Positions 3,164-59,322 of a stretch of 64,000 bases of DNA are shown in pieces; positions within the stretch are counted from its first letter, which is position 1; the number at the start of each line of letters is the position of its first letter. A program made the position numbers and the translations under genes. The notes beneath the pieces are model-generated. The model did no database searches, was not told the DNA's origin, and was given only the letters and a program-made list of their open reading frames with translations. This stretch comes from Trueperaceae bacterium (GTDB lineage Bacteria; Deinococcota; Deinococci; Deinococcales; Trueperaceae): contig CBDCDZ010000004.1 of the NCBI GenBank assembly GCA_965215565.1, positions 4,128,001 through 4,192,000 of the forward strand. The letters run 5' to 3'.

Positions 3164-3226
3164 GCTGCAAGTCCTTCATAGTTTAGATCAATGCACCAAA
3201 GAGGCGCTTTGAAGAGGTTGGGCGGA

Positions 3227-3508: not shown

Positions 3509-3635
3509 GGTGAAACCTCCTGTTTTATTATTTAGTCTAGCACCTTTGACCGGGGACGAACGTCACGGTGCGCTATGAAGGACTTCATGAAGGAAAAGAG
3601 GGTGCGTCAAGCACCCCCTGAACCACAGCTTCTCG

Positions 3636-17203: not shown

Positions 17204-17270
17204 CCCCTCTCAAAACGTTCTTTCGGCATTTCAAGCGGCGTTGGAGTCGGGCGGTAGAGCCTCGAGCCTC
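17204..17270 (-). repeat. Array-1 junction repeat S1
   Basis: GGCTCGAGGCTCTACCGCCCGACTCCAACGCCGCTTGA...AACGTTTTGAGA on the minus strand (reads RLEALPPDSNAA*). Confidence 0.85.
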
Positions 17271-17466
17271 AACTCACGCGCTGAGAGTCCGTGTCAGATT
17301 CTTTAACCACAGGCGTAACGCGCTTGGCAGGAAAGGACACGAAAACATCCTCGCTTTGCTCTTCTCGAGCTTGCAAGTCAGCGACAATCGCCTCGAGGTC
17401 ATAGTCAAACTTTTCGGCGTGTTCTTCACGAATACGCCTCACTTCTGCAACGATAGGGTCATCCAT
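17269..17466 (-). CDS. Small putative antitoxin downstream of a PIN toxin
   Basis: DPIVAEVRRIREEHA..FDYDL; overlaps the PIN gene stop. Confidence 0.6.
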   Translation of the reverse strand: MDDPIVAEVRRIREEHAEKFDYDLEAIVADLQAREEQSEDVFVSFPAKRVTPVVKESDTDSQRVS

Positions 17467-17941
17467 CCTCTACCTCCTTGAGTTCTTCGGGTGTGCAAAT
17501 AACGGACGGTTCGTAGCCTTCAGCGCGGCAGAGCGCTTCAATTTTGGCCCTGATTGTCGCATTCGCAATATGTTTGAGGTTCCAGGTCATGAGATAGTCT
17601 ATTCCGTTGGTCGTAGCGAGGGCGATGTGTAGGGCATCTTCGGACGCTTTTGGAGGAATCAGCGCTTGACTCATGATGGCTTTGGCTAACTCGAGTGCGT
17701 CTTGCTTCGTTGGTAAAAGGGGTAGTCCGTTCAGTGCTTGTAACCGTTTCTGAGCAGCACTTTTGTCACCACCGCCCGCCTCGTCTTTGACAAGCTGAGA
17801 GATGAAGAGGTCAAAGTGGGGTCTGCTGTCGAGCCACCAGTCTTGCGTCACTTGTTGATAGGCAGCCGTAACCAAATCTCTGCTAGGTCTGGCTGTTAAA
17901 TAGCTGATGACCGTAGTTTCGATGTAGACCTTCGGCTTCAC
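17459..17941 (-). CDS. PIN-domain (VapC-like) toxin
   Basis: VYIETTVISYL, SQLVKDE, DALHIALA and LMTWNLKHI motifs. Confidence 0.85.
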   Translation of the reverse strand: MKPKVYIETTVISYLTARPSRDLVTAAYQQVTQDWWLDSRPHFDLFISQLVKDEAGGGDKSAAQKRLQALNGLPLLPTKQDALELAKAIMSQALIPPKASEDALHIALATTNGIDYLMTWNLKHIANATIRAKIEALCRAEGYEPSVICTPEELKEVEDG

Positions 17942-17967
17942 GCCTTTATTTTACTCTATAGTTTCAA

Positions 17968-18032
17968 TCCCATCTCAAAACGTTCTTCCAGCGTTTCAGG
18001 TGGCGTCGGAATCGGGCGGTAGAGCCTCGAGC
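17968..18032 (-). repeat. Array-1 junction repeat S2
   Basis: GCTCGAGGCTCTACCGCCCGATTCCGACGCCACCTGA...AACGTTTTGAGA (reads LEALPPDSDAT*). Confidence 0.85.
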
Positions 18033-18062
18033 AACGCCCCTAGCGCTTTTGACCTTTCCCAG

Positions 18063-18533
18063 TTATGACAAGAGGTTCCGCTGCCGCAGATGATTGAAGT
18101 TTTGCGCTGAGTATCCCAAATTGCTCGCCTCGAGGTAAAGGTTGAGGTCATCCGTAAGCAAGGAAGAAGGTTTTGCACTGAGATGCTCGAGCATCGCGCA
18201 ATCTGTGACACCTAAACGCACAAACGCTCTGTGCCGAGAAGCCACCTTCGATTCGATATGTTCTTCATCAATCGCTTGAATGGTTAGAGCAAGTTGCCGC
18301 ATCAACTCTGAGCGGACAGGCTCCCCGATCTGCGCAACGAGGTTCGACGTTTCTGCTAAAACTTGTGACGTGGTTGAGACCTTTGGAGCGTTGCGTACGA
18401 TCTCAATAAGTAAGTCGAGATCATCTTTTGTGAACGTTTTTGTACGTTTGTGACGTTCGATGAGACTTCTGTCTAAGCTCCCGACGACGAATAGGACCAA
18501 GAGGTTTGTGTCAAGAAGAATCGCACTCGTCAC
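18063..18533 (-). CDS. PIN-domain protein
   Basis: ILLDTNLLVL, VLAETSNL, LGVTD and LLTDDLNL motifs. Confidence 0.78.
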   Translation of the reverse strand: MTSAILLDTNLLVLFVVGSLDRSLIERHKRTKTFTKDDLDLLIEIVRNAPKVSTTSQVLAETSNLVAQIGEPVRSELMRQLALTIQAIDEEHIESKVASRHRAFVRLGVTDCAMLEHLSAKPSSLLTDDLNLYLEASNLGYSAQNFNHLRQRNLLS

Positions 18534-18817
18534 GCCGCAGCTAGACTAACATCTCTATTCTTGACCGCCTTGACGACTCCCGTTTCGTCGTCAATATGTA
18601 CGACTTTGAAAGACCGTTTCGGCACGTTCGCGCCTGCTAGTTCCGCGATTCTATTTTGAGGGTAATCCCAAGGTCTGGAAAATCCGACGGTAACGAGCCA
18701 TCTTCCTGACTCATCATCAAATTCGACCTCTTCTAAACCAATATGGGAAAGCGATTCTGATTCGTATAGACTTTTGATATACTCGAGGGCAGTTTGTACA
18801 GCAGCTTTGACTTGCAT
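18530..18817 (-). CDS. Hypothetical protein translationally coupled to the PIN gene
   Basis: GTGA overlap with the PIN gene; AAGGAG RBS; LEEVEFD..WLVTVGF motif. Confidence 0.65.
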   Translation of the reverse strand: MQVKAAVQTALEYIKSLYESESLSHIGLEEVEFDDESGRWLVTVGFSRPWDYPQNRIAELAGANVPKRSFKVVHIDDETGVVKAVKNRDVSLAAA

Positions 18818-18878
18818 GAGTCGTTCTCCTTCCTGGTCTAAAGGCGTTAGCGCAGTAGGTTAATTATAGACCAATCAC

Positions 18879-18971
18879 TCAACCAACCTCCCGCGCCCCC
18901 AACTCCCTCTTAAAGCTCAACGCTTCAGGCGGCGTTGGCGTCGGGCGGCAGAGCCTCGAGCCTCTCAAAAC
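18879..18971 (-). repeat. Array-1 junction repeat S3
   Basis: Reads FERLEALPPDANAA* and then SFKRELGAREVG*, the C-terminus of the DUF2442 pseudogene. Confidence 0.85.
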
Positions 18972-23396: not shown

Positions 23397-24188
23397 ATGA
23401 AGCGTAGTAGAATCTACCAGGTTTTATCCCTTTTGCTCTTCGCAGGTCTTTTGGCAAGCTGTAGCGATGTGTCGCAGCAAGAGGTGGTCGAGGAGCAGAG
23501 CACAGATACCTATGCGTTTAGCGCGCAGACCAGTAGCGGTTTGCTCTCGGGCGAGCTGACGCTAATTGAAGATGGCAGATGGGACGACTATGGAGGGGAC
23601 CGCGATTTTAGCTTCCAGTCATTTGATGCCCAGCTGAGGTTAGAAGACGGAACTCAGGTTAGCGGTCCTGCTTTCTTGCGAAACGGGGACGTTAGTCTAT
23701 ATCTCAGTAACAGAAGCGGTCAGTATATTAGAGGTGGTGGTCAAGCCAATGTTGACGGTTCGCTGAGTGGAGGGCTTAATGGACGAGTGAGCAACCAGCT
23801 TGTTACAGGTTCATGGACAGCGACCCCGATGAGTGGCTCAGGCAATACGCCCGACCCGACTCCTCCAGATGATGGTGATGATGGCAACCCACCCCCTTCC
23901 AATCCCGGTGACTCTGGGCAAGGCAACTTAACTGTCAACATCTTATCCAGCCCGAGTAACGTAAGTGTTGCGGTGACAGCTGAACTGGTCGGCGGAGGGG
24001 ACAATAGCTCTGTCAGTCTAAGCGGTTCCTCCAGTAGTAGCAGCGGCGGAGACCTGCTAGGAGTAATTGACGCTCCAGCCTCTGCGGGCGAATACCTGAT
24101 CAAAGTTAGCGGTGAAGGTGTTGTGGTACAAGACCGCTCCATCACGGTTGACCCTGGCGAAGATAAAGTGGTAAATATCACGCTCTAA
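23397..24188 (+). CDS. Hypothetical lipoprotein
   Basis: Signal peptide with LLASC lipobox, Pro/Asp-rich linker and beta-rich C-terminal domain. Confidence 0.65.
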   Translation: MKRSRIYQVLSLLLFAGLLASCSDVSQQEVVEEQSTDTYAFSAQTSSGLLSGELTLIEDGRWDDYGGDRDFSFQSFDAQLRLEDGTQVSGPAFLRNGDVSLYLSNRSGQYIRGGGQANVDGSLSGGLNGRVSNQLVTGSWTATPMSGSGNTPDPTPPDDGDDGNPPPSNPGDSGQGNLTVNILSSPSNVSVAVTAELVGGGDNSSVSLSGSSSSSSGGDLLGVIDAPASAGEYLIKVSGEGVVVQDRSITVDPGEDKVVNITL

Positions 24189-24204
24189 GTTATGTCCGAA
24201 TACA

Positions 24205-24232
24205 AGAGAGGCTCGAGTGCTCGAGCCTCTCT
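24205..24232. terminator. Bidirectional terminator hairpin built from two CTCGAG sites
   Basis: AGAGAGGCTCGAG-TG-CTCGAGCCTCTCT between convergent genes. Confidence 0.7.
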
Positions 24233-24241
24233 TTCAGTGGG

Positions 24242-25447
24242 CTAGAGCGTCTTCTCCGTCTCTGTAGGGACCTTATGGTTTGCATCCGCAGGGCTCGAGT
24301 CACCTTTCCCAGCACGCGCTAGCTGCGCGAACACCGTCACCAGCCCGAGCGCTACTGCCACGAGCCCAAGCGCCCCCGCGAGCGTCACGAGTTCGGCGGC
24401 AAACCCGATTAAAGGCGGACCCGCCAACCACCCTAAATAACCGAGCGTCGCTACCGCCGCAATTCCTGTACCCGGCGCAATCCCTGGCGTGCGCCCTGCG
24501 GCGCTAAAGAAGACGGGCACGAGGTTGGCAAGTCCGAGCCCGACGCAGCCGAAGCCGATGATGGCGGCGAGAGGTTGTCCGGTGAGGAGTGACAAGCCGA
24601 GCCCAGCGCCCGCCACCAAACTACCAAAGCGCACCGTCCTAGCTGAGCCGAGCCGCCCCACCACCACGTCACCCGTCAAGCGCCCCACCGCCATCATCAG
24701 TGAGAAGGAGGCGAAACCGGCAGCGGCGAGCCCGGTGCTCGTTCCTAAAACGTTGCGCAAGTAAACCGCGCTCCAGTCCGCCATCGCCCCTTCACCGACG
24801 AAAACGACGAAAGCCAAGAGTCCGAGCCCGAGCAGCGAGCCTGTGGGCAGCACAAAGGCGGGACCATCCGAAGAGGTTGAACCTTCCGCGCTTTTAGGCA
24901 AGAGGTGGCGAAGCACGAATACGCCCGCGCTCAGAAAAACGAGCGACGCGCTCGTCATGTGCAGAATCGGGCTCACGCCGCTCTCCAAAACCAATCCGCC
25001 AAGACCCGCCCCGAAGAGCCCACCTAAGCTAAAGAAGCCGTGAAACGACGACATGATGGGCTTGTCGTAACGCTGTTCCACGGCGACGGCTTGCGTGTTC
25101 ATCGCCACGTCCATCGCGCCGTTGCAGAGTCCGAAAAAGATGAGCGAGAGGACGAGGGGCGCGAAAGATGGCGCGAGCACGAGCGGCGGTAGCGACAAGC
25201 AAAAGGCAACCGTAGATACGCTCGTCACCGCGCGGCTGCCGAAGTGGGCGATAAGCCAGCCCGAGAGCGTCAGCGAAAAGACTGCGCCCAGGGCGACGCC
25301 TAAAAGTGCCAGCCCGAGCAGTCCCTCGGATAAGCTCAGCTTTTCTTGCACGAGCGGGATGTGCGGCACCCAACTGGCGATGGTTGCGCCGTTGACGAAG
25401 AAGATGGTGAGGACCGCGAGTCGGGCGACTTTGGGACGTGAGGTCAT
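24242..25447 (-). CDS. MFS transporter
   Basis: About 12 hydrophobic helices; GAMDVAMN, MSSFHGFFSLG and EGAMADWS motifs. Confidence 0.88.
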   Translation of the reverse strand: MTSRPKVARLAVLTIFFVNGATIASWVPHIPLVQEKLSLSEGLLGLALLGVALGAVFSLTLSGWLIAHFGSRAVTSVSTVAFCLSLPPLVLAPSFAPLVLSLIFFGLCNGAMDVAMNTQAVAVEQRYDKPIMSSFHGFFSLGGLFGAGLGGLVLESGVSPILHMTSASLVFLSAGVFVLRHLLPKSAEGSTSSDGPAFVLPTGSLLGLGLLAFVVFVGEGAMADWSAVYLRNVLGTSTGLAAAGFASFSLMMAVGRLTGDVVVGRLGSARTVRFGSLVAGAGLGLSLLTGQPLAAIIGFGCVGLGLANLVPVFFSAAGRTPGIAPGTGIAAVATLGYLGWLAGPPLIGFAAELVTLAGALGLVAVALGLVTVFAQLARAGKGDSSPADANHKVPTETEKTL

Positions 25448-25469
25448 GAGGTCTCCGTTATTTTATCCG

Positions 25470-27059
25470 TTAGTTGGATTGCAGAATCACACCTTCGAAG
25501 GGGCGCAGTTTGAGCGGTTGTTCGGCTTGACCTCTTCTGCCGAGTTCTGTTGAGAGCGTCACGCACCAGTCCGCTTCATCAGGTGGCGTGACCTCTCGAG
25601 CCTCTGCTGAAAAGTTGAGTAGTACCAGGGCTTTCGACGCTTCAACCTCTCGCCGGTAGCCGAATACGTCGTTCGGTGTGTCATCTAAAGGTTCGTAGCT
25701 GCCGATATTCAAAGCGGGCGTGTTGCGGCGCAGTTCCAACAACCTCTTGTAAAGCCACAGCATAGAGGTCTCGTCTTGCTTCTCAACCTCGACATTGACG
25801 CGCTCATAGTTCTCCGCAACGGGTAGCCAAGGCTCAGCTTCCGAAAAACCCGCGTACGTCTCCGCGTTCCACTGCATCGGCGTGCGCACGCCGTCTCTGG
25901 TCGTGCCCGTTTGGTAGACGGTGAAGGGGTCTTGCTGCTTTTCGGGTGGTACGTCTACGTTCGTCATATTCAACTCGTCGCCGTAGTACAGAAAGGGCGT
26001 GCCGCGTAAGCTCAAGAGGAGCATGGCGGCGAGCCGCGCCGCCTCCCCATGACGACTCAAGCGGGGCATATCGTGGTTGGCGAGGTTATAATTGGGTTGG
26101 TTATCGCCTAGCGCCGCGTCGTAAGCGTCTATCTTGGCCCGGAGCGTGTCCGCCTCCAGCGGCAAGAACATCAGCCCGAAGTAGAAAGGTAGGTCGAGCC
26201 CATTGCCGTTGCCATAATAGGCGTTAATCTGCTCCGGCTCTAAGTAATACAAAATCTCCCCTACAAGCACGCGCTCGGGGTAGGCGTGAATCGTGCGGGC
26301 CATCTCGAGGATGTAGTCGTGCGTCTCCGGCTGGTTGAGGTGGTATTTGGCGGCGGCGAGGTAGTCCTCAGCCTGCGCCGTATAGGGCGGTTCGTCTCGG
26401 AATTCGGCGTCTTTGCCTAAAAAGTCGAGCATATCGACGCGAAAGCCGTCCGCGCCGCGCTCTAACCAGAAGCGCAAGGCGTCCATCATCGCCTCTTTCA
26501 CCTCTTCATTGCGCCAGTTGAGTTCGGGCTGATAGGGGGAAAAGGACGCTAGGTAATACTGCGCCGTAGCTTCGTCCCAGACCCAAGCCGAACCGGGCGT
26601 ATCCAAACCGTTGACGCTCCGCCAGTTGTTCGGGGGGGAGCCGTCTGGCTTCGCGTCGCGCCAGGTGTACCAGTCGCGTTTGGGGTTGTCCTTGGAACTG
26701 CGCGATTCTACAAACCAGGGGTGCTCGTCTGAGGAGTGGTTCGGTACGAAGTCGAGGATGATCTTGAGGTTGCGCCCGTGCGCTTCACGAATGAGGTCAT
26801 CGAAATCTTCTAGGGTGCCGAAAAGCGGGTCAACGCCCGTATAGTCCGACACGTCGTAGCCGAAGTCTCGGTTGGGCGAGGGGTAGATAGGGGAGAGCCA
26901 CACCGCGTCTACGCCTAGCCACTCGAGATACTCCAACTTCTCCGTAATCCCTCTGAGGTCGCCGACGCCATTTCCTGTGGTGTCCTTAAAGCTGCGCGGA
27001 TAGATTTGGTAGATGACGCCCTTTTTCCACCACGTATGCTCTTTTGTAAGTTGAGTCAT
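25470..27059 (-). CDS. GH13 alpha-glucosidase/oligo-1,6-glucosidase
   Basis: YQIYPRSF, DFGYDVSDY, DFVPNH, DGFRVD, NHD and RDGVRTPMQW motifs. Confidence 0.92.
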   Translation of the reverse strand: MTQLTKEHTWWKKGVIYQIYPRSFKDTTGNGVGDLRGITEKLEYLEWLGVDAVWLSPIYPSPNRDFGYDVSDYTGVDPLFGTLEDFDDLIREAHGRNLKIILDFVPNHSSDEHPWFVESRSSKDNPKRDWYTWRDAKPDGSPPNNWRSVNGLDTPGSAWVWDEATAQYYLASFSPYQPELNWRNEEVKEAMMDALRFWLERGADGFRVDMLDFLGKDAEFRDEPPYTAQAEDYLAAAKYHLNQPETHDYILEMARTIHAYPERVLVGEILYYLEPEQINAYYGNGNGLDLPFYFGLMFLPLEADTLRAKIDAYDAALGDNQPNYNLANHDMPRLSRHGEAARLAAMLLLSLRGTPFLYYGDELNMTNVDVPPEKQQDPFTVYQTGTTRDGVRTPMQWNAETYAGFSEAEPWLPVAENYERVNVEVEKQDETSMLWLYKRLLELRRNTPALNIGSYEPLDDTPNDVFGYRREVEASKALVLLNFSAEAREVTPPDEADWCVTLSTELGRRGQAEQPLKLRPFEGVILQSN

Positions 27060-27121
27060 GGGTTTTCCTTTCGGTTTTTATGTTCGGTTCAAGTTGAACA
27101 GATGAAGAGGTGAGGGTTTGT

Positions 27122-27703
27122 TTAGCTCGAGTGCAGTTCACCCTCGGGCGGACCGATGTGAAAGTCGCGAAAGGTCGCCCGCAAGCCCGAACGCTCGGGG
27201 GTGCAGCACATGACGCCGACTTTGATAGGGTCAGAAGCAGGAAAGTCAGCGAGGCGCAAGAGGTAAGCGGAACCCTCCCGCAGAACTTGAACTAAGAGCG
27301 CCCCACCCCGGCGCGTGAGGCGGAGCGTCACCTCTGAGGCGTCTGTATTCAAATTCGTATTCAAAGAGGTCACGGACCAGTCGCTACGCTCCCGCGTGAC
27401 CACTGTGCTGAGTAGCTGTTTGCCGTCACTGTACTCAACCCCCGCTTTGACCCAATACCGCTCGTCTAAGCGCAGCATCAGCCCCGCTTGGTCGTAGAGG
27501 TGCGCGTACTGAGCGCTGAACGTCACCTCGGCGGTGAAGTCGCCCTCGGTTTCGGTATAGAAAAAGTGTCCGTTGTCGCGCACAAAGCCGTAGTGCGTCT
27601 CGCGCCAGAAGTCGGTGCGCTCGCCTGTGGTGACGCTCAAGCGGTTGTTTTCGACGTTCCAGTCGGGCGGCTCGCCTAGCCAGTACATGTCGGTGAACTT
27701 CAT
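27122..27703 (-). CDS. DUF1349 domain protein
   Basis: TDFWRETHYGF, YDQAGLM, WVKAGVE and GVMCCTPER motifs; start MKFTD after an AAGGAG RBS. Confidence 0.85.
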   Translation of the reverse strand: MKFTDMYWLGEPPDWNVENNRLSVTTGERTDFWRETHYGFVRDNGHFFYTETEGDFTAEVTFSAQYAHLYDQAGLMLRLDERYWVKAGVEYSDGKQLLSTVVTRERSDWSVTSLNTNLNTDASEVTLRLTRRGGALLVQVLREGSAYLLRLADFPASDPIKVGVMCCTPERSGLRATFRDFHIGPPEGELHSS

Positions 27704-27750
27704 AGTGTTCGCTCCTTGTTTTAAGAGTGCGGGTTGACTCGAGTCTTCGG

Positions 27751-27999
27751 TTACATGCGGCATACAAAAGAAAACATCGAGATAACGCCCAACCACATCG
27801 GGATAGCGATAAAAACCTTGCCGAGCGTGAAGATACTTGTTACGTCTGCGCCAAAAAGTTGCGCGACGCCCCCGACAATCAGCGTGATGAGACCGAGCGC
27901 GGTCAAGAGAACGAGCGCGAGGAGAAGCGCCGTGCGTTTTGCGCCGAAGAGGGTTCGGCTTTCGCGAGTCATGATGCGAATCGTACGTTTCATGAGCAT
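27751..27999 (-). CDS. Small hypothetical membrane protein
   Basis: Two hydrophobic helices; GGAGG RBS right after the upstream stop. Confidence 0.45.
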   Translation of the reverse strand: MLMKRTIRIMTRESRTLFGAKRTALLLALVLLTALGLITLIVGGVAQLFGADVTSIFTLGKVFIAIPMWLGVISMFSFVCRM

Positions 28000-28009
28000 C
28001 CTCCACGTT

Positions 28010-50410: not shown

Positions 50411-50506
50411 AAGGATTAAGAGAAAAGAACCGAGAGAAAAGGGAAAAGAAGAAAACCTTTCACCTTTTCTCTTTTACCTTTTAACTTCTTTTTGAAAGGA
50501 CTATCT

Positions 50507-51292
50507 ATGGCAACCGCTTACAGTTCTCTAGCTAAAAACGCCGCTCACGCCCCCGAAGATGGGGAGCGCATCATCGAAGTTGAAGGGCTCAACAAGTGGT
50601 TCGGCGACTTTCACGTGCTGAAAGACATCGAGCTTTCCGTCAATAGGGGAGAGGTCGTCGTAGTCATCGGTCCGTCGGGCTCGGGAAAGTCTACACTGAT
50701 TCGCTGTATCAATAGGCTCGAGGAGCACCAAGAGGGTAAGATTTTCGTCGATAAGGTTGAACTCACCGACGACGTGAAAAAAATCGACCAAATCCGCCGT
50801 GAGACGGGCATGGTCTTTCAGCAGTTCAACCTCTTTCCGCACCTGACCGTTATGGAGAACATCACCTTAGCGCCCATCCGCGTACGCGGATGGAAGAAGT
50901 CGAAGGCGGAGGAGCGGGCGCAGTACTTTTTAGGCAAGGTCGGCATCCCTGAACAGGCGAACAAGTACCCCGGTCAACTTTCGGGCGGTCAGCAGCAGCG
51001 CGTGGCGATTGCGCGGGCACTGACGATGGAGCCCAAAGTCATGCTCTTCGACGAACCCACCTCTGCGCTCGACCCCGAGGTCATCGGTGAGGTCTTAGAA
51101 GTCATGGTCAACCTGGCGCAAGAGGGGATGACGATGGTGGTGGTAACGCACGAGATGGGGTTTGCTCGCGAAGTGGGCAACCGCGTGATCTTCATGGACG
51201 CAGGGCAAATTGTAGAGGTGGGGAGCCCGGAGCACTTCTTCACGAATCCGCAAGAGGAGCGCACCAAGTCGTTTTTATCGAAGATTCTTTAG
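50507..51292 (+). CDS. Amino-acid ABC transporter ATP-binding protein (AapP/GlnQ-like)
   Basis: [16 protein letters not shown] and DEPTSALD motifs. Confidence 0.95.
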
Positions 51293-51422
51293 ATTTTGCG
51301 TCCGACGCCGATGGACACCGGTGTTGTTGGTTTGAGACCGAATCGGGTCCGTAAGTTTTTCGTTCTGGGTACTCGAGCGTAGGGGTAGAAACAATTCTTT
51401 CTCTCGTTGAGCAGCACCCGCT

Positions 51423-51638
51423 TCACGCGGCTAAAAGTGCGTCCTTTGCCAGCTCGAGAAAAGAAATTGCCTGCTCACGGCTCACACCGGGAAAGCCGTC
51501 TAAAAACTCATCTAAGGTGTCGCCGCCCTCGAGATAATCCAATAAGTTTTGAACAGGCACACGTGTATCCGTAAGGACAGGCGTGCCGCCTAGAATCTCA
51601 GGGTCAGTGTGGTAGACCTCTTCGCGCGTCATCGGCAT
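51423..51638 (-). CDS. DUF433 domain antitoxin-like protein
   Basis: DPEILGGTPV..TRVPV...FPGV; followed by a truncated DUF5615-like start (GTG KRVLLNE). Confidence 0.85.
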   Translation of the reverse strand: MPMTREEVYHTDPEILGGTPVLTDTRVPVQNLLDYLEGGDTLDEFLDGFPGVSREQAISFLELAKDALLAA

Positions 51639-51958
51639 TAGGACGCCTTATCCAGTCGTTCGGCAATCCACTGATTCAGGCTTTTGCCCTCTTTTTTAGA
51701 AGAGGTGTACACCTTGCGGTGCAGTTCAGGCGATAAGCGGAGCATGAGCTTACCGGAAAAAGGCTTATCGGGCTCTTCTCCGCGTTCTTCGCAGAACTCG
51801 AGGTAGTCATCTACGGAACCCCTAAACGCTTGAGAAAGTTCGTCCACACTTTTACCTTGAAACGTCACTACATCGCGCAGGTCGAGCACTTCACCGCGAA
51901 AGATGCCCGCTTCGTCGTTAAATTCGACATGTCCCGTATATCCTTTGTAGTTCAACAT
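51638..51958 (-). CDS. HicB family antitoxin (no hicA adjacent)
   Basis: YKGYTG, VTFQG, SVDDYLEFC...PDKPFSGKLMLRLSPELH and SLNQW motifs. Confidence 0.88.
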   Translation of the reverse strand: MLNYKGYTGHVEFNDEAGIFRGEVLDLRDVVTFQGKSVDELSQAFRGSVDDYLEFCEERGEEPDKPFSGKLMLRLSPELHRKVYTSSKKEGKSLNQWIAERLDKAS

Positions 51959-51980
51959 TAGTGCACCTCAAAAACTAGGA

Positions 51981-52008
51981 TTGGCTCGAGTCGTGATAAC
52001 GCAACGCC
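51981..52008 (-). repeat. Array-2 junction repeat R1 (yoeB 3' end)
   Basis: TTGGCTCGAGTCGTGATAACGCAACGCC; minus strand reads ALRYHDSS. Confidence 0.75.
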
Positions 52009-52017
52009 GCACCATCT

Positions 52018-52311
52018 TTACTCGAGCCGTTCTCGCCAATAATTTGGCTTGCGATGACCGTGCGCTACAGCAGCGACGATGACACGCTCTTCGCGGATGA
52101 AATAAGCAACGTAGAAGGGGAAAACAGGACAGTTGACTCGTCTATAGCTGCCTTCACGTTCGCGCTAGAGCAGCGGGTCTGCGAGGATGCTCGTACAGAC
52201 CCTAAGCACCTCATCTCGAAACCGGACGCCGAGCCCCGCTTCTCTACTCTCGTAATAGGTTGCAGCCTCTAAAAATTCATCTCGAGCTTCGGGTAGGAAC
52301 TCTAGCGTCAC
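52018..52311 (-). pseudogene. RelE/ParE family toxin with an in-frame TAG
   Basis: MTLEFLPEARDEF...DPLL*REREG...FPFYVAY...VAHGHRKPNYWRERLE; stop at 52165-52167. Confidence 0.8.
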
Positions 52312-52543
52312 TTCGCTAAACGCTTATCAATCTCTTGGAAGACCTGAGAGGCGGAAAGACTCTGTACATCTCCTCCGTCGTAAGCTTGAATGCGACGCTG
52401 AATTTCAGCATCCCAAGCCGCTTCAACCTCTTTAGCTTCTTGTGGCTCGAGGCTACTCAGTAAGCGGTGCGCAAGCGTGAGGCGCTGGTCTTCTGGAAGG
52501 GTCAGTGCGTCACTCGTAAGGGTATCAATCGTCTTTTGCATAG
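52308..52543 (-). CDS. Addiction-module antitoxin
   Basis: ALTLPEDQRLTLA..LL.SL...AWDAEIQRR; leaderless TACAAT-N6-ATG sets the start at MQKTI. Confidence 0.82.
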
Positions 52544-52572
52544 AGACATTGTAGCACTGAGGGTTGGAGAGG

Positions 52573-52712
52573 TTAGCTCGAGCCGTAATACCGCAACGCC
52601 ACGATATGCAGCTCATTTCCCTGTACGCGGTAAACCAGCCTGTGTCCATCCGTAATGCGCTGTAACCACCAGCCGGAGAGGTTGTATTTTAGCGCTCTGG
52701 GTTTGCCTAGCC
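52573..52712 (-). pseudogene. Txe/YoeB toxin C-terminal remnant (junction repeat R2)
   Basis: Reads LGKPRALKYNLSGWWLQRITDGHRLVYRVQGNELHIVALRYYGSS*. Confidence 0.85.
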
Positions 52713-52713
52713 A

Positions 52714-54411
52714 TCAAGTATTGAAAGGGGCTTTCCAAACTGTCGTAGCTAAATCGGCTAATTTTTCTTGTCGTTTTTTAAGCGTTAGTGGTGTCCACTC
52801 GTTATATATACTTCTCTCACTCGTTAGCTTGTAAACGCTTTCTCTGTAAATAGGAAGCTTCTGCTCATAAGGCTTGTTGGCACACACCTTATTTTTCTGC
52901 GGTTCAAGTAAGGTTAGGTTGCCTATTCTTTGCGTCGCTTTATCTTGCTCTTCCGGTGAAAAGAAAACGCCCCAGGCTTCCGAAGCATTTTCAGGTAATA
53001 TGTGCTCTATTGTAGCTTTCATGTTGTCACTGTAATCATACGCCGTAGAAGCCAGTTGGTTTTCAAGCTCAAAGAGAATATAGCGTATTAAATTATTGTT
53101 ACGCTGGAGTGTTTTTAGAGCAAAGTTAGCTTTGAACCGCTCGTCATCTATGTAGATAGATTTTAGCTCTGTAAAAATATTGCTAGCATTTGCTAAACGT
53201 CCCGAAGTCACCTTGACGGCTGCTCTATGGTAAACATCCTCGAGAAGGTTGGGGTTCAGTCCGCTAATGACATTGTAGCGAAAAGAGATAGCAACGCAGA
53301 GCCTTAACAACTTAGTAAACTCTTGAGAGTCGAGCTTTCGGTAGGCGGCGAGGAGAAGAGGATAGCACTGCCTAACTCTAAAAAGGTCAAGTGCATCTAT
53401 CCACTTGACCTGCTCTTTCTCCCAAAGGTCATCAGCAGGTTTCGATAGCGCGACAAATACTTCAACGAGGTCTTCTAAATCTTCTAGGAGACTAAAGACG
53501 CTCTCTCTAGTCGTGATAGTTGATTTTATTGCCTTAAACAGTGTTTGCTTGCGCTGAAAAGAATATTTTGAATTCCAGTAATAGCGTAGAAAAGAAGGAA
53601 AGTCCTTATTGCTCAAACTGTCGTTGATGCTCTGCCACTGTCTTTCCGCCTCTTCAAGGTCCGCCTCACCTCCTCTAGCAGCAACGGAGAAGAGGAAATT
53701 TTTAAGTAGGTCTGTCGTTGAGAGACGCACGCCTCGAGCGTTGAGCGTCTCAAAAACCTTATAAGCATTGAGGTCATCTGCCACTGTTATTGTTGTAAAA
53801 ACTAGTTTATCGGCTACCGTCTTCTCTAGGAACTCTGTAAGCATAGCGCCATCTCGTTCATCCTCGAACCGCTCTTTAAGTCGCTCGTAAAGATATTCGA
53901 GAGCTTCCCAAAGTAGCCTTTGAGACGGTTTCAATTTGCGTCTATTCGTGGGAGGACGCAAACGCAGTAAGCGACTTTGATAAAAGTCATCATTGTTGCG
54001 ATTCAGAAAAAGCTTGCTTCTCAACATTAGTGAAGAGACATCTGTTTGACTGATAAACCTGCTCGTTAAGAGTTCTTGACGTTGCTGATTCTGATCTGAC
54101 GAAATTCCTTCATCTGCCCAATCTCCTAATAGCTTGATGACAGCAAGTACTAAAATACTGAGTGTTGTGATTCGCTGCTGCCCATCAATAATAATGAAAT
54201 TGCGGTTGTCATCGCTCTGCAAAACTACGTAGCCCATGTAGTGAAAGGTTTCTTCTCCCCTGGAGACCTCTAAAATATCCAGCCACAGGTCTTCCCACTG
54301 TTCCTCTGCCCATGAGTAATCACGCTGATAAGGAGGAACCCTAAAAACCCGCCCATTACTTATGAGATCATTGAAAGTGGCTGTGCCTGTAGGTAAAAGA
54401 ACCGTTGCCAT
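52714..54411 (-). CDS. DUF262-DUF1524 (GmrSD-like) HNH nuclease
   Basis: VPPYQRDYSW, IDGQQR, FETLNARG, IEHILP and IGNLTLL..N motifs; low GC. Confidence 0.88.
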   Translation of the reverse strand: MATVLLPTGTATFNDLISNGRVFRVPPYQRDYSWAEEQWEDLWLDILEVSRGEETFHYMGYVVLQSDDNRNFIIIDGQQRITTLSILVLAVIKLLGDWADEGISSDQNQQRQELLTSRFISQTDVSSLMLRSKLFLNRNNDDFYQSRLLRLRPPTNRRKLKPSQRLLWEALEYLYERLKERFEDERDGAMLTEFLEKTVADKLVFTTITVADDLNAYKVFETLNARGVRLSTTDLLKNFLFSVAARGGEADLEEAERQWQSINDSLSNKDFPSFLRYYWNSKYSFQRKQTLFKAIKSTITTRESVFSLLEDLEDLVEVFVALSKPADDLWEKEQVKWIDALDLFRVRQCYPLLLAAYRKLDSQEFTKLLRLCVAISFRYNVISGLNPNLLEDVYHRAAVKVTSGRLANASNIFTELKSIYIDDERFKANFALKTLQRNNNLIRYILFELENQLASTAYDYSDNMKATIEHILPENASEAWGVFFSPEEQDKATQRIGNLTLLEPQKNKVCANKPYEQKLPIYRESVYKLTSERSIYNEWTPLTLKKRQEKLADLATTVWKAPFNT

Positions 54412-54518
54412 CTATATGTTGATTCTACAAAAGTATTGTGTATTCTGTCTGCAAGTCAGCGTCATACGCTTTTGGTAGATGCTCGAGCATCGTTTCCTCA
54501 CCTCTTTACTTCCGAGCG

Positions 54519-54633
54519 TTGGCTCGAGCCGTGATACCGCAACGCCACGATATGCAGCTCAGTTAGATTTTCTCTTTTCAAAGTCTCGAGTCGCTTCTAA
54601 GAGGCGTTCGGCGTTGGCGGGGCTGCGCAGCAA
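54519..54633 (-). repeat. Array-2 junction repeat R3 (yefM 3' end fused to yoeB 3' end)
   Basis: Nearly identical to 55699-55813; reads LLRSPANAERLLEATRDFEKRKSN* and then ELHIVALRYHGSS. Confidence 0.9.
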
Positions 54634-54649
54634 ATGGTATGTCTAAAGT

Positions 54650-54931
54650 GTGCCGTTCGAACTGACGATTGCGCCAAGTATCGAAGAGAAGATTTGGACG
54701 AAGCACCGCGTTTTACCTGACGAGGTTCGCGAAACGCTAGACGACCCTACCCTGCGGCGCTTTCTCGTTAAGCGCAACCGTAAAGCGAGGGAGATAACCT
54801 ACCTGTATGTAGGATTGACCTATACGGATAGGCTCTTGAGGTCTATCATCATCCACAAGCCGGACGGGTCAGCCTACCTAAAGACCTCACTTGATGCGTT
54901 CAAGCAAGACCGAATCGGCTATAATAGGTAA
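54650..54931 (+). CDS. BrnT-like toxin (putative)
   Basis: EKIWTKH.V...EVRE, YLYVGLT...RLL pattern; paired with a small acidic protein. Confidence 0.6.
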   Translation: MPFELTIAPSIEEKIWTKHRVLPDEVRETLDDPTLRRFLVKRNRKAREITYLYVGLTYTDRLLRSIIIHKPDGSAYLKTSLDAFKQDRIGYNR

Positions 54932-54933
54932 AG

Positions 54934-55116
54934 ATGAGTGACGTTCTAAATCGCCGCGATACTGAGCACAGAGTCATCACCGACCCCGAGGACTTGCCCA
55001 ACTTCGACCTCATGTCGGATGATGAGGTTATGGCATGGTGGGAGCGTCATGAGGTCAGCGCGGAGATTCTAGCCTCTTTGGAAGACACGGGCGAAGAGAT
55101 AGACTTCGACTTTTAG
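54934..55116 (+). CDS. Short acidic antitoxin-like protein (CopG/BrnA N-terminal-like)
   Basis: LPNF..MSDDE..AWWERHEV pattern; lacks a C-terminal RHH. Confidence 0.5.
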   Translation: MSDVLNRRDTEHRVITDPEDLPNFDLMSDDEVMAWWERHEVSAEILASLEDTGEEIDFDF

Positions 55117-55168
55117 GGCGAATAGGGCTGAAAACTTTTGAAGTGTGGGCTCGAGCCAGGTTTGAGGG

Positions 55169-55211
55169 TTAGCTCGAGCCTCAATACCGCAACGCCACCG
55201 TATGAGACTCA
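55169..55211 (-). repeat. Array-2 junction repeat R4 (yoeB 3' end)
   Basis: TTAGCTCGAGCCTCAATACCGCAACGCCAC, identical to the start of R5. Confidence 0.85.
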
Positions 55212-55460
55212 ACTTATCAGCCTGTCATACTCAGCGTGGCTACCAATCCAGACCCAGATGAAATCGTCGCCGTCTTTCACGGCTAAAGCTCGGTAGCTGA
55301 GACCAACGCGCACCGACCAATAACCACCCACTTCCTTGAAATGCAGCGACGGATGCCTAGGGTTCTCTTTAAGCAGCTCGAAGTTCTTACGGGCAAGTCT
55401 TTGAACGTTTTCACTCAGCGCATCAAAACGCTTCCAAAACTGCGGCGTAGTGCGGTGCAC
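55209..55460 (-). CDS. RelE-superfamily toxin
   Basis: FWKRFDAL, NPRHPSLHFK, WSVRVGLSYRAL and WIGSHAEYD motifs. Confidence 0.82.
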   Translation of the reverse strand: MHRTTPQFWKRFDALSENVQRLARKNFELLKENPRHPSLHFKEVGGYWSVRVGLSYRALAVKDGDDFIWVWIGSHAEYDRLIS

Positions 55461-55661
55461 CTACAAGTCCCGCAGTTCACCCTTGGCTTTAGCCGCCTTC
55501 GCCTCTTCCCGCAGAAACTCGAGTTTGCCCGCCGCCGCATCCTTCTCTATCTGCTCATCCCACTGTCGCCAATCTCTTTCGGCGAACCATTCGCGCAGAT
55601 GGATAAAGTCTTCGGCTGGTAAGGCTTCAATTTCGGCTTTGAGATGATCAACTTGAGACAT
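55461..55661 (-). CDS. Putative antitoxin
   Basis: 66 aa, WDEQIEKDAAAGKL; directly upstream of the toxin; leaderless TATAAT-N5-ATG. Confidence 0.72.
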   Translation of the reverse strand: MSQVDHLKAEIEALPAEDFIHLREWFAERDWRQWDEQIEKDAAAGKLEFLREEAKAAKAKGELRDL

Positions 55662-55698
55662 AGGTGATTATACGCGAAGTTAGAGAAGAGGTCAGGTT

Positions 55699-55971
55699 TT
55701 AGCTCGAGCCTCAATACCGCAACGCCACGACATGCAGCTCAGTTAGATTTTCTCTTTTCAAAGTCTCGAGTCGCTTCTAAGAGGCGTTCGGCGTTAGCGG
55801 GGCTACGCAGTAAGACCATTGTCTCCTGCCGAGCGTTCCAATCGTCCAAGCTCATCATGACCACAGCCTTGTCGCTGCCTTTGGTGATGATGAGGGGGTG
55901 TGGTCGTCCACAACCTCATCTACTGCGTTGGCTAGGTTCTTGCGGGCTGTGGTGTAACCGAGGATTTTCGT
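55699..55971 (-). pseudogene. YefM/Phd antitoxin pseudogene plus yoeB 3' end (junction repeat R5)
   Basis: ACG in place of ATG; YTTARKNLANAVDEVVDDHTP / -1 frameshift / IITKGSDKAVVMMSLDDWNARQETMVLLRSPANAERL. Confidence 0.85.
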
Positions 55972-55975
55972 AGAA

Positions 55976-57394
55976 TTAACTGCTTTTCACCTTTTTAGTC
56001 GAAGGAAGCTTCGGAAACTCAACAACCTGCCCTGCCCCCGTCTTAATTGCTCCTCGACACTGCTTCGCGAAATCCTTATCGTCATTCTCTTTCAAATACT
56101 TAGCTGGACCGAACAAGTCGATAGTGCGGATCAAAGCAATTTTAGAACGCTGTGCCCCGCTCAAACACTTTGTCGTGAAAAATTCTTTCCTCGTATTTGG
56201 TTTATCGAAGCGATAGGCGTTGCCGAAAAGAACGCCGTTTGCGTACTCGTCAACTTCTTCTCTTGCAAAATCCTCCTGTAATTCTCTCTCAAGTTGGCTC
56301 AACTTATCTATATTGATAGCTTTGTTATCCCTTCCTTCAGCTTCACCTATGAATCTACCTTCCTCACTTACAAATACTGCATCGAACTCGGACTCATCGT
56401 TTTGATAATTCTCAGCCTCAAAACCAAAGAGCTTCAGCGCTTCGATAATGGCTGACTCTAGCGGTTTTCCTTTTTCGAACAGTACATCACGAAGAGAACC
56501 CTCTTTTCGAAGTTCTTCTTGAAGGATAGTACGCTCAGTATTTAGATTTTCAATTTTATTCGTTATGTTTATTATCTCTTCTTGAAGAGCCACTTCACTC
56601 TCGAGATTGAACTTGGAGTCTTGAGTCCAATCTGGTGGCGGAGTGACCTCACTTCTCGTTTTCAACGCTTTATCTACTTGTACAAGGGCTGTAACTAATC
56701 TTTTAGTAAATGCTTTACCCTTCTCATTCTCAATGTACTCATCTGTTTCTTCGTCGTAGTCGGATAGCTCTTCAATATCGTAGTCAAGTGAAGGCAACAG
56801 CACTAAGTGCCCTTTACCTACTGACAATATAGAACCTACAGTTTTGCCACCAGATTTAGTTGCAAGAATAGGAAGTCCAACTGGTTTATCTAAATATGCT
56901 TTGTATTCGGAATGCTCGCCGAAATCTTTCCAGTAAGTTGTGAGCGGTCCCAACTCTGCTAATGCCTTAATCTTCTCTCCACTACGAGAGATGAGATGAT
57001 CAAGCTTAATAGGTAGAATCTCGTAATTATTGTGGGGCTCAACATGCTGAGTTGTCACTCTGTTTTTTCCCGTTCCAGAGAATGATTTATTCCCTGTATA
57101 TGCGTAAAACGTATTCCTAGCTCCTAAGAAGAAAAAAACTGTTTTACCCCCTTCTAATGCGTTCTTTATCTCTATACGCCAGTGCGATAGAGCTTCAACG
57201 GTTCGAAAAGATAAAGATTGACTTAGGAGGGGTTTACCGCCGTATTGCTCGCTTGAATAAAGTATAAGGTCTATTTCTGGACTAGCTAGGATAATGTCAG
57301 CGTCCAAAAGAGATCGACTAGAGAAAAAGCCAATTTGCTCGTCTCCATCCGAAAGAATTTCTACGTTAAGCGAGAAAATGGCTCGTTTTGCCAT
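55976..57394 (-). CDS. Low-GC hypothetical protein with a coiled coil and a C-terminal PD-(D/E)xK-like region
   Basis: LESAIIEALKLFGF...EFDAVF....RFIGEAEG pattern resembles Mrr-like nucleases; 472 aa. Confidence 0.6.
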   Translation of the reverse strand: MAKRAIFSLNVEILSDGDEQIGFFSSRSLLDADIILASPEIDLILYSSEQYGGKPLLSQSLSFRTVEALSHWRIEIKNALEGGKTVFFFLGARNTFYAYTGNKSFSGTGKNRVTTQHVEPHNNYEILPIKLDHLISRSGEKIKALAELGPLTTYWKDFGEHSEYKAYLDKPVGLPILATKSGGKTVGSILSVGKGHLVLLPSLDYDIEELSDYDEETDEYIENEKGKAFTKRLVTALVQVDKALKTRSEVTPPPDWTQDSKFNLESEVALQEEIINITNKIENLNTERTILQEELRKEGSLRDVLFEKGKPLESAIIEALKLFGFEAENYQNDESEFDAVFVSEEGRFIGEAEGRDNKAINIDKLSQLERELQEDFAREEVDEYANGVLFGNAYRFDKPNTRKEFFTTKCLSGAQRSKIALIRTIDLFGPAKYLKENDDKDFAKQCRGAIKTGAGQVVEFPKLPSTKKVKSS

Positions 57395-57459
57395 TCCATA
57401 ACCCCCTTATAAACATCAGGTGTTAGATGGCGCTACACATAAAGCAACGCACCTCTACT

Positions 57460-59322
57460 TCACCCCAATACATCCAACGCCTCCTCATCCCCCACCTCCT
57501 CCAACACCTCTTTCCGCCGCGTCGCCCACGCCGGAAAAGGAAAACTCAGCATCAAGGGGCTCGGCACGTCGGGCTGGTGCACCACCATCGTACCGGGGGC
57601 GAGGATGGTGGCGCGGGAGCGGAAGGTGGCGGGCATGAAGCGGTATTCACTGCGTTCGGACTCGGCGGCGTCTAAGCGTCCGACGATGCGCACGGCGGCG
57701 TTGGCGACGATGCGGCGCTCCACTTCGGAGGCGGTCTGCTGCGCCCCGATGAGGACGATGCCCATGCTGCGCCCGCGCTCAGCGATGTCTAGGAGCACGT
57801 CTTTGATGGGGCTGTCCCCCTCGGCGGGCGCGTACTTGTTCAGCTCGTCTAAGACGACAAAGACTTGACCCTTGCTATTGCGCGACTCCTGCACGCCGAA
57901 GACCTGTTTTAAGAGGACGCCGACAACGAACATCTGCGCTAAGGGCGCGAGGTTGTGGATGTCCACGACGTGAACTTGTTTTTCACTGTTCAAGATGTCG
58001 AGGCGGCTGCGGCTGACCTCTTTTTGGGACAAGTCGCCGCGAATGAGGTGGCGCAGGTGCTTAGACGCGCCGCGCAGACGGCGGATGAAGGCTTCGCGGG
58101 TGGCTTTGGCTTGGTTGGCGGTCCAGGCACGGTTGCCGCCTTTGCTGCTCTCTTCGTCTTCGGCTCCCTCGAGCAGCAGCTTGTACTCGATGTAGTCCAC
58201 CAGCTCTAAAAAGGTCGTGAGGCGCGGCTTATGCGAAGAGGTCATGAAGTCTTCTGCGCCGAGCGCGTCCGTTTCGCTGATGCGTCCGACTTGTTCTTGA
58301 CCGGGGCGGTAGCCGGTGTCTTCGTCGGCGACCTCGAGGTAAGGTCCGCGCTGCTTTTCGGCGAGCTTGGCGAGCTTTTCCTCCAAGTGGCTGACCAAAA
58401 AGCCCAAGTTCGTCATCGCGTCGCGGTCGGTCAGGACGAAAGGCAGCATCCGCTCGGCGGCGAAGTCGCGCAGGGTCCAGAGGTACGGCGAGACGCCCTC
58501 GCGGGTCTCCACATCGGCGCGAAGGGTGCTTCCCTCTCGAGCAGGTGCGTGCAGGGCGACGCTCGGAAACGGACCTACCGGCAAATCACAGATTTGAAAA
58601 CGGGTCTCCGCGCTCTTGCGCTTCTCCTGCCACTTTCGCTCGGTCTCGACGAAGTCCTTGTTCTCCTTGTCCAAAAAGAGCAGGTCTTCGCCCTTGACGT
58701 TGAAGATGATGGCTTTGGTGGCGTTCGGGTTGGTGAGGAGGCTGCCGCCCCGCTCGCGGTGCTGGGCGTTGAAGATGCTGTAGAGCAGAAAGAGCGCGTA
58801 AGAGGTCTTCGTGGCGATGCCCGAGATACCCGAGATGTTGATGTGTGCGCCCTTTTGCCCGCTGATGAAGTCGTAGTTGAGGTAGCCGGGCTCGCCGTTG
58901 CGCAGGACGCCTGCGGGGAGGGGCGCGTCCATATTGTCGAGGTAGAGGGCTTTTTCTAACGCCGTATCCGTCGCCATGTAGACCAAATCGCCAGGACCGG
59001 GCGGGATGAAGTCTTCGGGTTCGACCCTGGTCACCAAGATGTGCGCGGCATATGCGATATTCGCGGGCATCAACCCTTGCGTCACGAGCGCCGTGTCCCC
59101 GTCGAACTGCACGCCTTCAAAGCGGCGGCGCACCTCGTCCACGACACCGTAAAAGGTCACGGCTTCGTCCTCGTCCGAGGGGTCTTGCACCTTGACGGTC
59201 AAGATGTCGTCGAGCTGGATTTTGACGCCGTCCTCGACGGCGATCCAGAATTGGAGAGGTGTCGCATCTTCAGTTCCGAGTACCATTCCAATGGGAGTTT
59301 CGCTGTTCAATTTAGAGGTCAT
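57460..59322 (-). CDS. herA: HerA-family ATPase/helicase
   Basis: N-terminal HAS-barrel-like region; HINISGISGIATKT, LDELNKYAP, RGRSMG and GAQQ motifs; downstream of nurA. Confidence 0.85.
   Translation of the reverse strand: MTSKLNSETPIGMVLGTEDATPLQFWIAVEDGVKIQLDDILTVKVQDPSDEDEAVTFYGVVDEVRRRFEGVQFDGDTALVTQGLMPANIAYAAHILVTRVEPEDFIPPGPGDLVYMATDTALEKALYLDNMDAPLPAGVLRNGEPGYLNYDFISGQKGAHINISGISGIATKTSYALFLLYSIFNAQHRERGGSLLTNPNATKAIIFNVKGEDLLFLDKENKDFVETERKWQEKRKSAETRFQICDLPVGPFPSVALHAPAREGSTLRADVETREGVSPYLWTLRDFAAERMLPFVLTDRDAMTNLGFLVSHLEEKLAKLAEKQRGPYLEVADEDTGYRPGQEQVGRISETDALGAEDFMTSSHKPRLTTFLELVDYIEYKLLLEGAEDEESSKGGNRAWTANQAKATREAFIRRLRGASKHLRHLIRGDLSQKEVSRSRLDILNSEKQVHVVDIHNLAPLAQMFVVGVLLKQVFGVQESRNSKGQVFVVLDELNKYAPAEGDSPIKDVLLDIAERGRSMGIVLIGAQQTASEVERRIVANAAVRIVGRLDAAESERSEYRFMPATFRSRATILAPGTMVVHQPDVPSPLMLSFPFPAWATRRKEVLEEVGDEEALDVLG

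Follow-up and report, generated by a model that had tools for sequence, protein, structure and literature searches.

How does a stack of unrelated toxin-antitoxin (TA) and defense genes grow at one chromosomal position when no integrase lies beside it? This question is raised by an array next to herA in a Trueperaceae genome (G000, 4.49 Mb), which we analyzed in a window of 64,000 nucleotides (contig CBDCDZ010000004.1, here C4, positions 4,128,001 to 4,192,000; plain positions below are those of the window). Reading away from herA, the array consists of modules a, b, c, d and e, separated by copies of the 3' end of a yoeB toxin gene that carry the palindrome CTCGAG; a further module, f, is known from the other two genomes of the same genus, G001 and G002. 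The answer that we favor, with moderate confidence, is that repeated insertion with long target duplication built the stack and homologous recombination reshuffled it, CTCGAG probably favoring one of the two joints. Two genomes of another genus, G005 and G044, were used for comparison.

The repeats consist of five 28-nt copies in the same orientation, at 51981, 52573, 54519, 55169 and 55699 (79 to 93% identity to the first copy). A first-pass annotation made from the sequence alone had listed exactly these five, and a genome-wide search at up to 6 mismatches returned no other match. It had also read them as the last codons of yoeB on the minus strand, which is confirmed by the R2 tail: this matches PF06769 (E 1.7e-13) and TIGR02116, and it shares 75% identity with an intact yoeB (G000:C4:775344-775583), part of a yefM-yoeB pair (G000:C4:775.3-775.8 kb, 75 to 78% identical) without an array behind it. 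The possibility that the repeat is the tail of an integrase on the opposite strand was ruled out, as the frame is that of YoeB. The 5' extents vary from about 40 nt to a whole yefM pseudogene, as had been described. All on the minus strand, R1 (51981..52026, CTCGAG at 51985) and R4 (55169..55213, CTCGAG at 55173) are short yoeB ends with tails of ~40 to 45 nt, R2 (52572..52713, CTCGAG at 52577) is the 3' half of yoeB ending in the repeat core (141 nt), R3 (54519..54633, CTCGAG at 54523) is a yefM tail fused to the yoeB end (115 nt), and R5 (55699..55971, CTCGAG at 55703) includes the anchor, a yefM pseudogene that is frameshifted and joined to the final ~45 nt of yoeB, which brings the range to about 40 to 270 nt. 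The tail of R1 starts at a second CTCGAG (52021), which ends the ParE frame of module d, and R4 and R5 share 30 identical nt.

Counting positions from CTCGAG, the repeat core covers about -30 to +4 (~35 nt). CTCGAG itself is kept in 12/12 array copies from the three genomes of the genus (copies that are not independent), and 11 of these 12 continue with C-Y-A-A, including the yoeB stop, so that the homology runs 4 nt beyond the palindrome. The earlier statement that the repeats finish at CTCGAG does not hold as an exact end: the joint would lie 0 to 4 nt beyond it, and later exchanges fall anywhere within -30 to +4.

Neither an assembly artefact nor an integron accounts for this arrangement. 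Unitigs of run X1, probably the source sample of G000, span R1, R2, R4 and the R5 core with 0 differences; the 115-nt stretch common to R3 and R5 is not bridged whole by any of them, and the same junctions recur in the G001 and G002 assemblies. The first-pass annotation had found no recombinase or attC site at the array, and the fold, Rfam and domain searches agree. There is no conserved hairpin on either strand of the repeats (z -1.6 to +1.9; 10/10 folds), no inverted core resembling attC is visible in their sequences, and the single Rfam match in the array was judged to be due to chance. The genome has six tyrosine-recombinase (PF00589), one resolvase and one Y1-transposase matches, none of them within 390 kb on the chromosome, and the array inserts contain no other mobility gene. 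The six PF00589 matches, which may or may not be of IntI type, all lie away from the array, and the sole resolvase-domain match lies on a small contig. A Xer/dif-like 11-6-11 site was also considered and not adopted, as its arms are not inverted repeats.

Variable content with breakpoints at the repeats had been set beforehand as the test of a cassette array, and this is what the relatives present. Both G001 and G002 carry the array behind a 99%-identical herA. The order from herA is yefM pseudogene, a, b, c, d, HicB, DUF433 in G000; yefM pseudogene, f (DUF4160/DUF2442), c, b, d, DUF433 in G001; and yefM pseudogene, HicA-HicB, DUF433 pair, f, b, part of d, part of HicB in G002. Modules b and c are thus exchanged between G000 and G001, and module a is present in the array of G000 only. 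In run X6, a marine metagenome from a different study (joints called at 90% likeness, the shorter side being 61 letters long), one joint has d upstream of c and breaks inside the repeat. Among 12 aligned repeats, bases to the right of +4 track the downstream module (identity 0.85 versus 0.33) and bases to the left of -30 track the upstream module (0.59 versus 0.29; 5 to 6 pairs per class in both cases), while the core tracks neither of its neighbors. As the core follows neither module, the exchange takes place inside the repeat, though not at one fixed base; an idea that bases -8 to -1 move together with the downstream module found no support (0.71 versus 0.65). The tails of d and f have CTCGAG as their start in one genome, and a form of it with one mismatch in the other. 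A fully empty allele of the herA site was not assembled, and alleles with herA-yefM and with an intact yefM-yoeB are hinted at by joints in runs X2 and X6. The origin of the module b tail from a relative was considered too weak to keep (over 112 nt, 3 differences to the G001 anchor, 7 to its own and 8 between the anchors). Separately, a ~115-nt MITE-like (miniature inverted-repeat transposable element) dispersed element is present in dozens of copies in G000, G001, G002 and G005, one of which splits the G002 yefM pseudogene (L034, G002:C2 about 1794800-1794920) near the start of the module b tail.

The duplication itself is best seen at a second array in the same window, on the plus strand behind a clpB-like gene (17204..18964; G000:C4:4145204-4146964), where three copies of an unrelated 41-64-nt repeat ending AGAGCCTCGAGC enclose two small-gene pairs, one of them PIN-like. 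G001 and G002 have one 65-nt copy and neither module at this site; G000 has three copies and the two extra modules. The locus appears to be an empty-versus-filled site and the clearest case of duplication accompanying acquisition, so the proposal that each acquisition duplicates the 3' end of the anchor seems to hold. The clpB and herA arrays are 35 kb apart and run in opposite directions, which indicates that strand direction does not set the polarity.

In the reading that we favor, incoming DNA, probably from relatives and obtained by DNA uptake, would join the chromosome 0 to 4 nt past CTCGAG, often one that the module also carries. The other end of the module would be closed by a repair-type joint 30 to 270 nt upstream, and that stretch would be duplicated behind the module; such a duplication would keep the 3' end constant, let the 5' end vary and leave the upstream gene whole. 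The next insertion would tend to reuse the anchor-side copy, making the array grow next to the anchor, and host recombination, presumably of the RecA type, in the ~35-nt core would delete, swap and reorder modules and exchange them between strains. A dedicated recombinase would not be needed, and any gene end could be an anchor. Type II TA systems resist loss, and the modules may persist for this reason and because most of them come with a leaderless promoter of their own. Growth on the anchor side fits module a (found in G000 only and surrounded by 30 identical nt) and the clpB site, and the c-b order of G001 fits it only with reshuffling. A ComEC-family gene is present in 5/5 genomes. The duplication lengths at other loci (31 to 115 nt) are within the range given in PMC2853133; the tails here have about 40 to 270 nt.

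Similar arrangements are found at other gene ends, so the dead yefM-yoeB pair is not the special anchor that it had been taken for: pilin, antitoxin, urease-accessory-like and other gene ends serve equally. A blind search of G000 for local direct repeats found 223 pairs, grouped in 123 clusters, which we divided into 62 dispersed, 45 in-ORF (open reading frame) and 29 locus-specific loci, mixed clusters being counted in more than one class. The 29 locus-specific loci include the clpB-side array, a pilin-side TA array and single TA pairs between 31-83-nt duplications; fresh single insertions in G000 have duplications of 31, 76 and 83 nt with 90 to 97% identity, and in G044 there is a 115-nt duplication with 99%. 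The pilin-side array (G000:C4:1138951-1142400, L093; also L105, L112, L113 and L114) consists of TA modules between PilA4 pilin genes and tRNA genes. Its repeat, in 5 to 8 copies, combines the pilin 3' end, a terminator, a -10 box and first codons, and its content varies in G001 and G002; the array also occurs in G005 and G044, with an unrelated, CTCGAG-rich repeat. In an antitoxin-gene array (G044:C2:4731800-4737206, L116/L124; G005:C1:3407988-3409792, L122), the repeat corresponds to the 5' portion of an antitoxin-like gene (78 aa) without a Pfam family, and it ends at CTCGAG in 6/6 copies in G044 and 3/3 in G005; an intact homolog in G002 (L123) is paired with a PemK-like toxin and has no CTCGAG. 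All four copies of a second G044 array (G044:C2:1995.0-1997.4 kb, L129) end at CTCGAG, where its 115-nt, 99%-identical duplication also starts, as do the 3/3 copies of a G005 array (G005:C1:644.9-648.1 kb, L139) with an HNH pair and a PIN pair. Two of these other-genus repeat families were found through module homology and one through a blind list of PIN matches, none through the motif. As a separate observation, three promoter-like repeats of 39 to 101 nt, two of them starting at CTCGAG, surround a Uma2 gene and a 326-aa gene at G000:C4:3968914-3971391 (L134).

A role of CTCGAG at the repeat joints is moderately supported. G000 contains 6990 sites, one per 640 bp, which makes it the most over-represented palindromic hexamer (2.6x), and they are evenly spread (352 to 417 per 250 kb); over 31 genomes the counts go from 128-457 in family f2 up to 23,000-28,000 in family f5. 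With this background, CTCGAG is no more than 10 nt away from one end in both copies at 7 of the 29 locus-specific loci versus 2 of the 107 dispersed or in-ORF loci, and still at 6/28 when the herA array is left out (p=0.001). It ranks first of all 4096 hexamers at locus-specific repeat ends, for which the 233 common hexamers average 0.63. Of the shared CTCGAG sites, 7 fall in the 636 positions at repeat ends and 3 in the 1509 positions of repeat interiors (p=0.01), and the share expected by chance among random 6-nt microhomologies is 0.6 to 0.8%. In the other genus, four repeat families that are unrelated to one another also finish at CTCGAG. Module a has CTCGAG 41 nt ahead of its ATG in G000 and also at a non-array site in G005, with a one-mismatch form in G044. 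Candidate methylases in G000 (8 PF07669 matches and 4 motif matches) include none that can be assigned to CTCGAG. The CTCGAG-poor genome G027 has no PIN, ParE or DUF433 match, so it is unusable as a control. A second iterated motif, the non-palindromic AGAGGT/ACCTCT, occurs in G000 (8-mers such as GACCTCTT are ~10x over a second-order model) and is also seen just past several module starts.

Several observations weigh against the favored reading. The 10-nt end window and the class thresholds were set by the author after examples had been seen. CTCGAG is not a requirement: it is missing from three fresh insertions and from the pilin-side array in G000 and G001, and in the author's reading it is found at 5 of 10 TA-bracketing loci in G000; about half of the bracketed modules are without it. 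In a blind test centered on PIN genes, for which we took the best 20 of 41 matches in G005 and the best 20 of 36 in G044, in regions not met before, 34 of the 40 loci have no locus-specific repeat, and only 2 of the remaining 6 end at CTCGAG (control hexamers, 0.1). Ordinary TA operons are not enriched for the motif either downstream (16/45 versus 26/114, p=0.11) or upstream (10/43 versus 19/114, p=0.36). Next to CTCGAG, a 15-nt block on its left is 93% conserved, the 5 nt between them only 63%, and this block looks like a protein-binding site. The X6 joints depend on a 90% likeness in a metagenome; in G001 a module with a later tail type is distal to one with an earlier type, so the order is not purely chronological; and the open frame of comEC is shorter in G000 (580 aa, match at G000:C4:3713749-3714525) than in four relatives (737 to 789 aa). 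No joint, circle or enzyme was observed.

The same insertion and shuffling could have taken place with CTCGAG as a bystander, if whatever keeps the palindrome abundant also preserves or creates it within the repeats, in such a way that decayed repeats seem to end there. We regard this as unlikely, though it is the alternative that survives best. It draws on the absences just described, at about half of the bracketed TA modules and at TA operon ends in general, and on two properties of the motif: CTCGAG is conserved above its permutations genome-wide (53/80 sites, 66%, versus 46%), which can pull alignment ends toward it and speaks against the favored reading as well, and it is frequent in intergenic DNA (in 23% of random 106-nt windows of G005 and G044). 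A bystander would not be expected, however, at the point where recent, near-identical duplications stop sharply (115 nt at 99% in G044, and the 30 nt at 100% of R4/R5), or at repeat ends as opposed to interiors. Module a also keeps CTCGAG in register in two genera, and a conservation of 66% per site predicts fewer than the 12 of 12 copies that have it in the array, even if these copies are not independent.

A recombinase encoded elsewhere in the genome, which would recognize the ~28-nt yoeB end and excise and reinsert modules as circles in the manner of integrons or staphylococcal cassettes, seems rather improbable. The tails would then be fixed parts of the cassettes, and indeed they travel with their modules (the yefM tail with b in 3/3 genomes, the half yoeB with c in 2/2). 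The core can be seen as a conserved block, a variable 5-nt spacer and another conserved block, the order changes at the repeats, and the six tyrosine-recombinase matches provide candidates. On the other hand, the core blocks are not inverted repeats and form no hairpin, there is no single crossover point and no linked recombinase, and at least five other repeat families share nothing with the yoeB repeat beyond CTCGAG. The pattern is, moreover, limited to 3 of 128 family genomes, all in this genus, and to one record of a genome collection; it was found neither in the other 125 family genomes nor in a scan of a metagenome collection. No repeat pattern lies beside 8/8 intact yoeB genes examined, and no repeat array is present in the first 7.5 kb downstream of herA in 10/10 genomes outside the genus, some of them on short contigs.

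A tandem yefM-yoeB duplication followed by replacement or decay, or trimmed scars of larger elements, with modules that never inserted with a duplication of their own, is very improbable: the tails do include diverged, coding-like yefM and yoeB alleles (the module b tail of G001 and the module f tail of G002), and three genomes of another family have yefM-yoeB or another TA pair behind herA, so that the slot is old, but neither 5' nor promoter remnants of yefM occur in the repeats, there are single modules that have one clean duplication and an empty site to match, and the array contains no integrase remnants.

Returning to insertion with long target duplication favored at one joint by CTCGAG, a broader version of this reading can be put forward only tentatively. 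CTCGAG might be a genome-wide, integrase-free attachment or Chi-like signal in Deinococcota, at which DNA ends would be produced or resolved by a host factor, a few bases beyond the palindrome, so that gene ends nearby could seed integron-like arrays capturing, stacking and reordering TA and anti-phage modules.

TA and defense cassettes between direct repeats, with variable content and order, are familiar from integrons and clusters of attC sites lacking integron integrases (CALINs) and from the staphylococcal cassette chromosome (SCC) islands at the rlmH 3' end, whose repeats copy the last codons of a gene. The herA array is like integrons in that cassette content and order vary with breakpoints at the repeats. 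Unlike these systems, it has no attC hairpin, its repeats vary in length and do not form one family, and no IntI, Ccr-type or other recombinase was found near it in searches that did not cover PF07508.

The first-pass annotation knew of no named system of this kind, which does not stand, as two described phenomena resemble the array. The first is insertion with long and variable target duplication, known for restriction-modification genes (Nobusato et al. 2000, as cited in Furuta et al. 2010, PMC2853133); according to the latter survey, the process was described in 2000 from genome comparison and its mechanism was still not established in 2010. The likenesses to this Kobayashi-type insertion, as presented there, are defense cargo without other mobility genes, variable direct repeats of more than 30 nt, empty sites in relatives, repeats that often span a start or stop codon and thereby leave the target gene whole, and mostly naturally competent hosts, including Thermus (PMC2853133). 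Of four features of the type, three are found here (the empty site at the clpB locus), and the exception is the class of cargo, which is not restriction-modification: apart from one GmrSD/HEC-06 nuclease, it is made up of TA-type pairs. As type II TA pairs, which are most of the cargo here, are unable to cut DNA, a nuclease of the cargo itself cannot explain the break. A further difference is that insertions are serial at one anchor and later reordered, with one joint biased to a genome-wide palindrome. The main-text portions of PMC2853133 have no TA cargo (0 occurrences of the term), serial arrays or motif, and its supplements possibly hold serial cases.

The second phenomenon is that of the orphan cdiA-CT/cdiI arrays of systems for contact-dependent growth inhibition (CDI) and of Rhs arrays (Poole et al. 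2011, PMC3150448), in which a variable stretch of the anchor lies upstream of a fixed motif (VENN), modules run from motif to motif, and module order changes between strains without a known recombinase. Their modules, however, are toxin tips made for in-frame fusion with a live gene, at a motif that codes for protein (PMC3150448). Here the anchor is dead, the modules are complete units with promoters of their own, anchors are many and unrelated, and what is fixed at the end is a DNA palindrome. At herA in particular, the anchor is a pseudogene, the modules begin past its stop with their own -10 boxes, and one of them is inverted.

Another hyper-abundant palindrome is HIP1 (GCGATCGC), the highly iterated palindrome of cyanobacteria, which has been tied to site-specific or illegitimate recombination, to SDR5 insertion and to better, methylation-dependent transformation, and which is possibly Chi-like (PMC4390886, PMC5861425, bioRxiv 10.1101/2024.09.10.611283, PMC13756078). 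Like HIP1, CTCGAG is over-represented genome-wide, evenly spread and conserved above background; unlike it, it belongs to a different phylum, has a different sequence and is only 2.6-fold enriched in G000. Neither CTCGAG nor Thermus or Deinococcus is mentioned in the PMC4390886 passages that were searched, and natural arrays with gene modules delimited by HIP sites did not come up in our literature search. Short-repeat recombination also shuffles small genes, and can release mini-circles, in the PeSL (promoter early stem-loop) cassettes of T4-type phages (Arbiol et al. 2010, PMC2839356), to which the pilin-side array, with its terminator and -10 box repeats, is very similar. The phage cassettes use one dispersed family of functional promoters (PMC2839356), in contrast to the locally copied repeat of each array here, a dead coding fragment in the case of herA. 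The literature search, which left subscription journals mostly outside its coverage, found no work on CTCGAG joints or on TA arrays whose boundaries are duplicated ends of genes. The new element with respect to the known process is likely CTCGAG at one joint; the process itself is known and was here likely repeated at one spot, followed by shuffling.

The locus thereby ties insertion with long target duplication to highly iterated palindromes such as HIP1, the function of which is a long-standing question. The process appears to act repeatedly on cargo that mostly cannot cut DNA and to build integron-like defense arrays without an integrase, and the array points to a six-base signal at one joint, which opens a direct test of palindrome function in Thermus- or Meiothermus-type strains. 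If CTCGAG is indeed a capture signal, arrays of this type would preserve in nature a record of what palindromes of the HIP1 type do. They are also places to look for new anti-phage genes, e.g., module b and the 472-aa gene described below.

As regards the individual modules, HicB, DUF433, a TIGR02574 antitoxin, GmrSD and a ParE_like toxin were verified, with the corrections that HicB is an orphan and that the toxin of module d is interrupted. Module a (55209..55661, minus strand) codes for a ParE_like (RelE-type) toxin and a 66-aa partner, with TATAAT 5 nt ahead of the ATG. Module b (54650..55116, plus strand) is an inverted two-gene pair (93 and 60 aa) and a probable TA pair; its description as BrnT-like is a weak lead, with no Pfam/NCBIfam match and BrnT in 25% of one Atlas cluster. 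Module c (52714..54411, minus strand) is a GmrSD-family nuclease of 565 aa (PADLOC HEC-06, E 1e-215), just 74% identical to the G001 copy. Module d (52018..52541, minus strand) contains a TIGR02574/PF09720 antitoxin (52308-52541), with TACAAT 6 nt ahead of the ATG, and a ParE-type toxin frame with an in-frame stop (52018-52311). Module e (51638..51958, minus strand) is the orphan HicB, HicA being present in G002, and the DUF433 antitoxin-type gene that follows (51423..51638, minus strand) lacks a DUF5615-like partner, which is also present in G002.

The conserved upstream flank is herA (57460..59322, minus strand), whose protein is 99% identical in G001 and G002. Between herA and yefM is a slot with another defense-like gene in each genome, without flanking repeats. 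In G000 this is a low-GC gene of 472 aa (55976..57394, minus strand), not bounded by a repeat, for which the searches gave no family match, so that its earlier label of nuclease-like remains a lead; in G001 it is an HsdR_N-like gene (L033 2867-3748) and in G002 an AAA-ATPase-like gene split by an insertion sequence (L034 rc 2736-5824), the last two by ORF reading. The distal flank also differs, being an amino-acid ABC ATPase (GlnQ-like; 50492..51292, plus strand) in G000, a ribosomal-protein-S1-like gene in G001, and GNAT- and truB-like genes in G002, the latter two genomes again named by ORF reading. In another family, the herA 3' flank has yefM-yoeB (G030:C1:36989-37509, L084), a yefM-like gene (G022) or another TA-like pair (G026), so that TA genes recur in this slot. 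Finally, CRISPR-like short repeat arrays are present at G000:C4:4338588-4340279 and 4350074-4350465.

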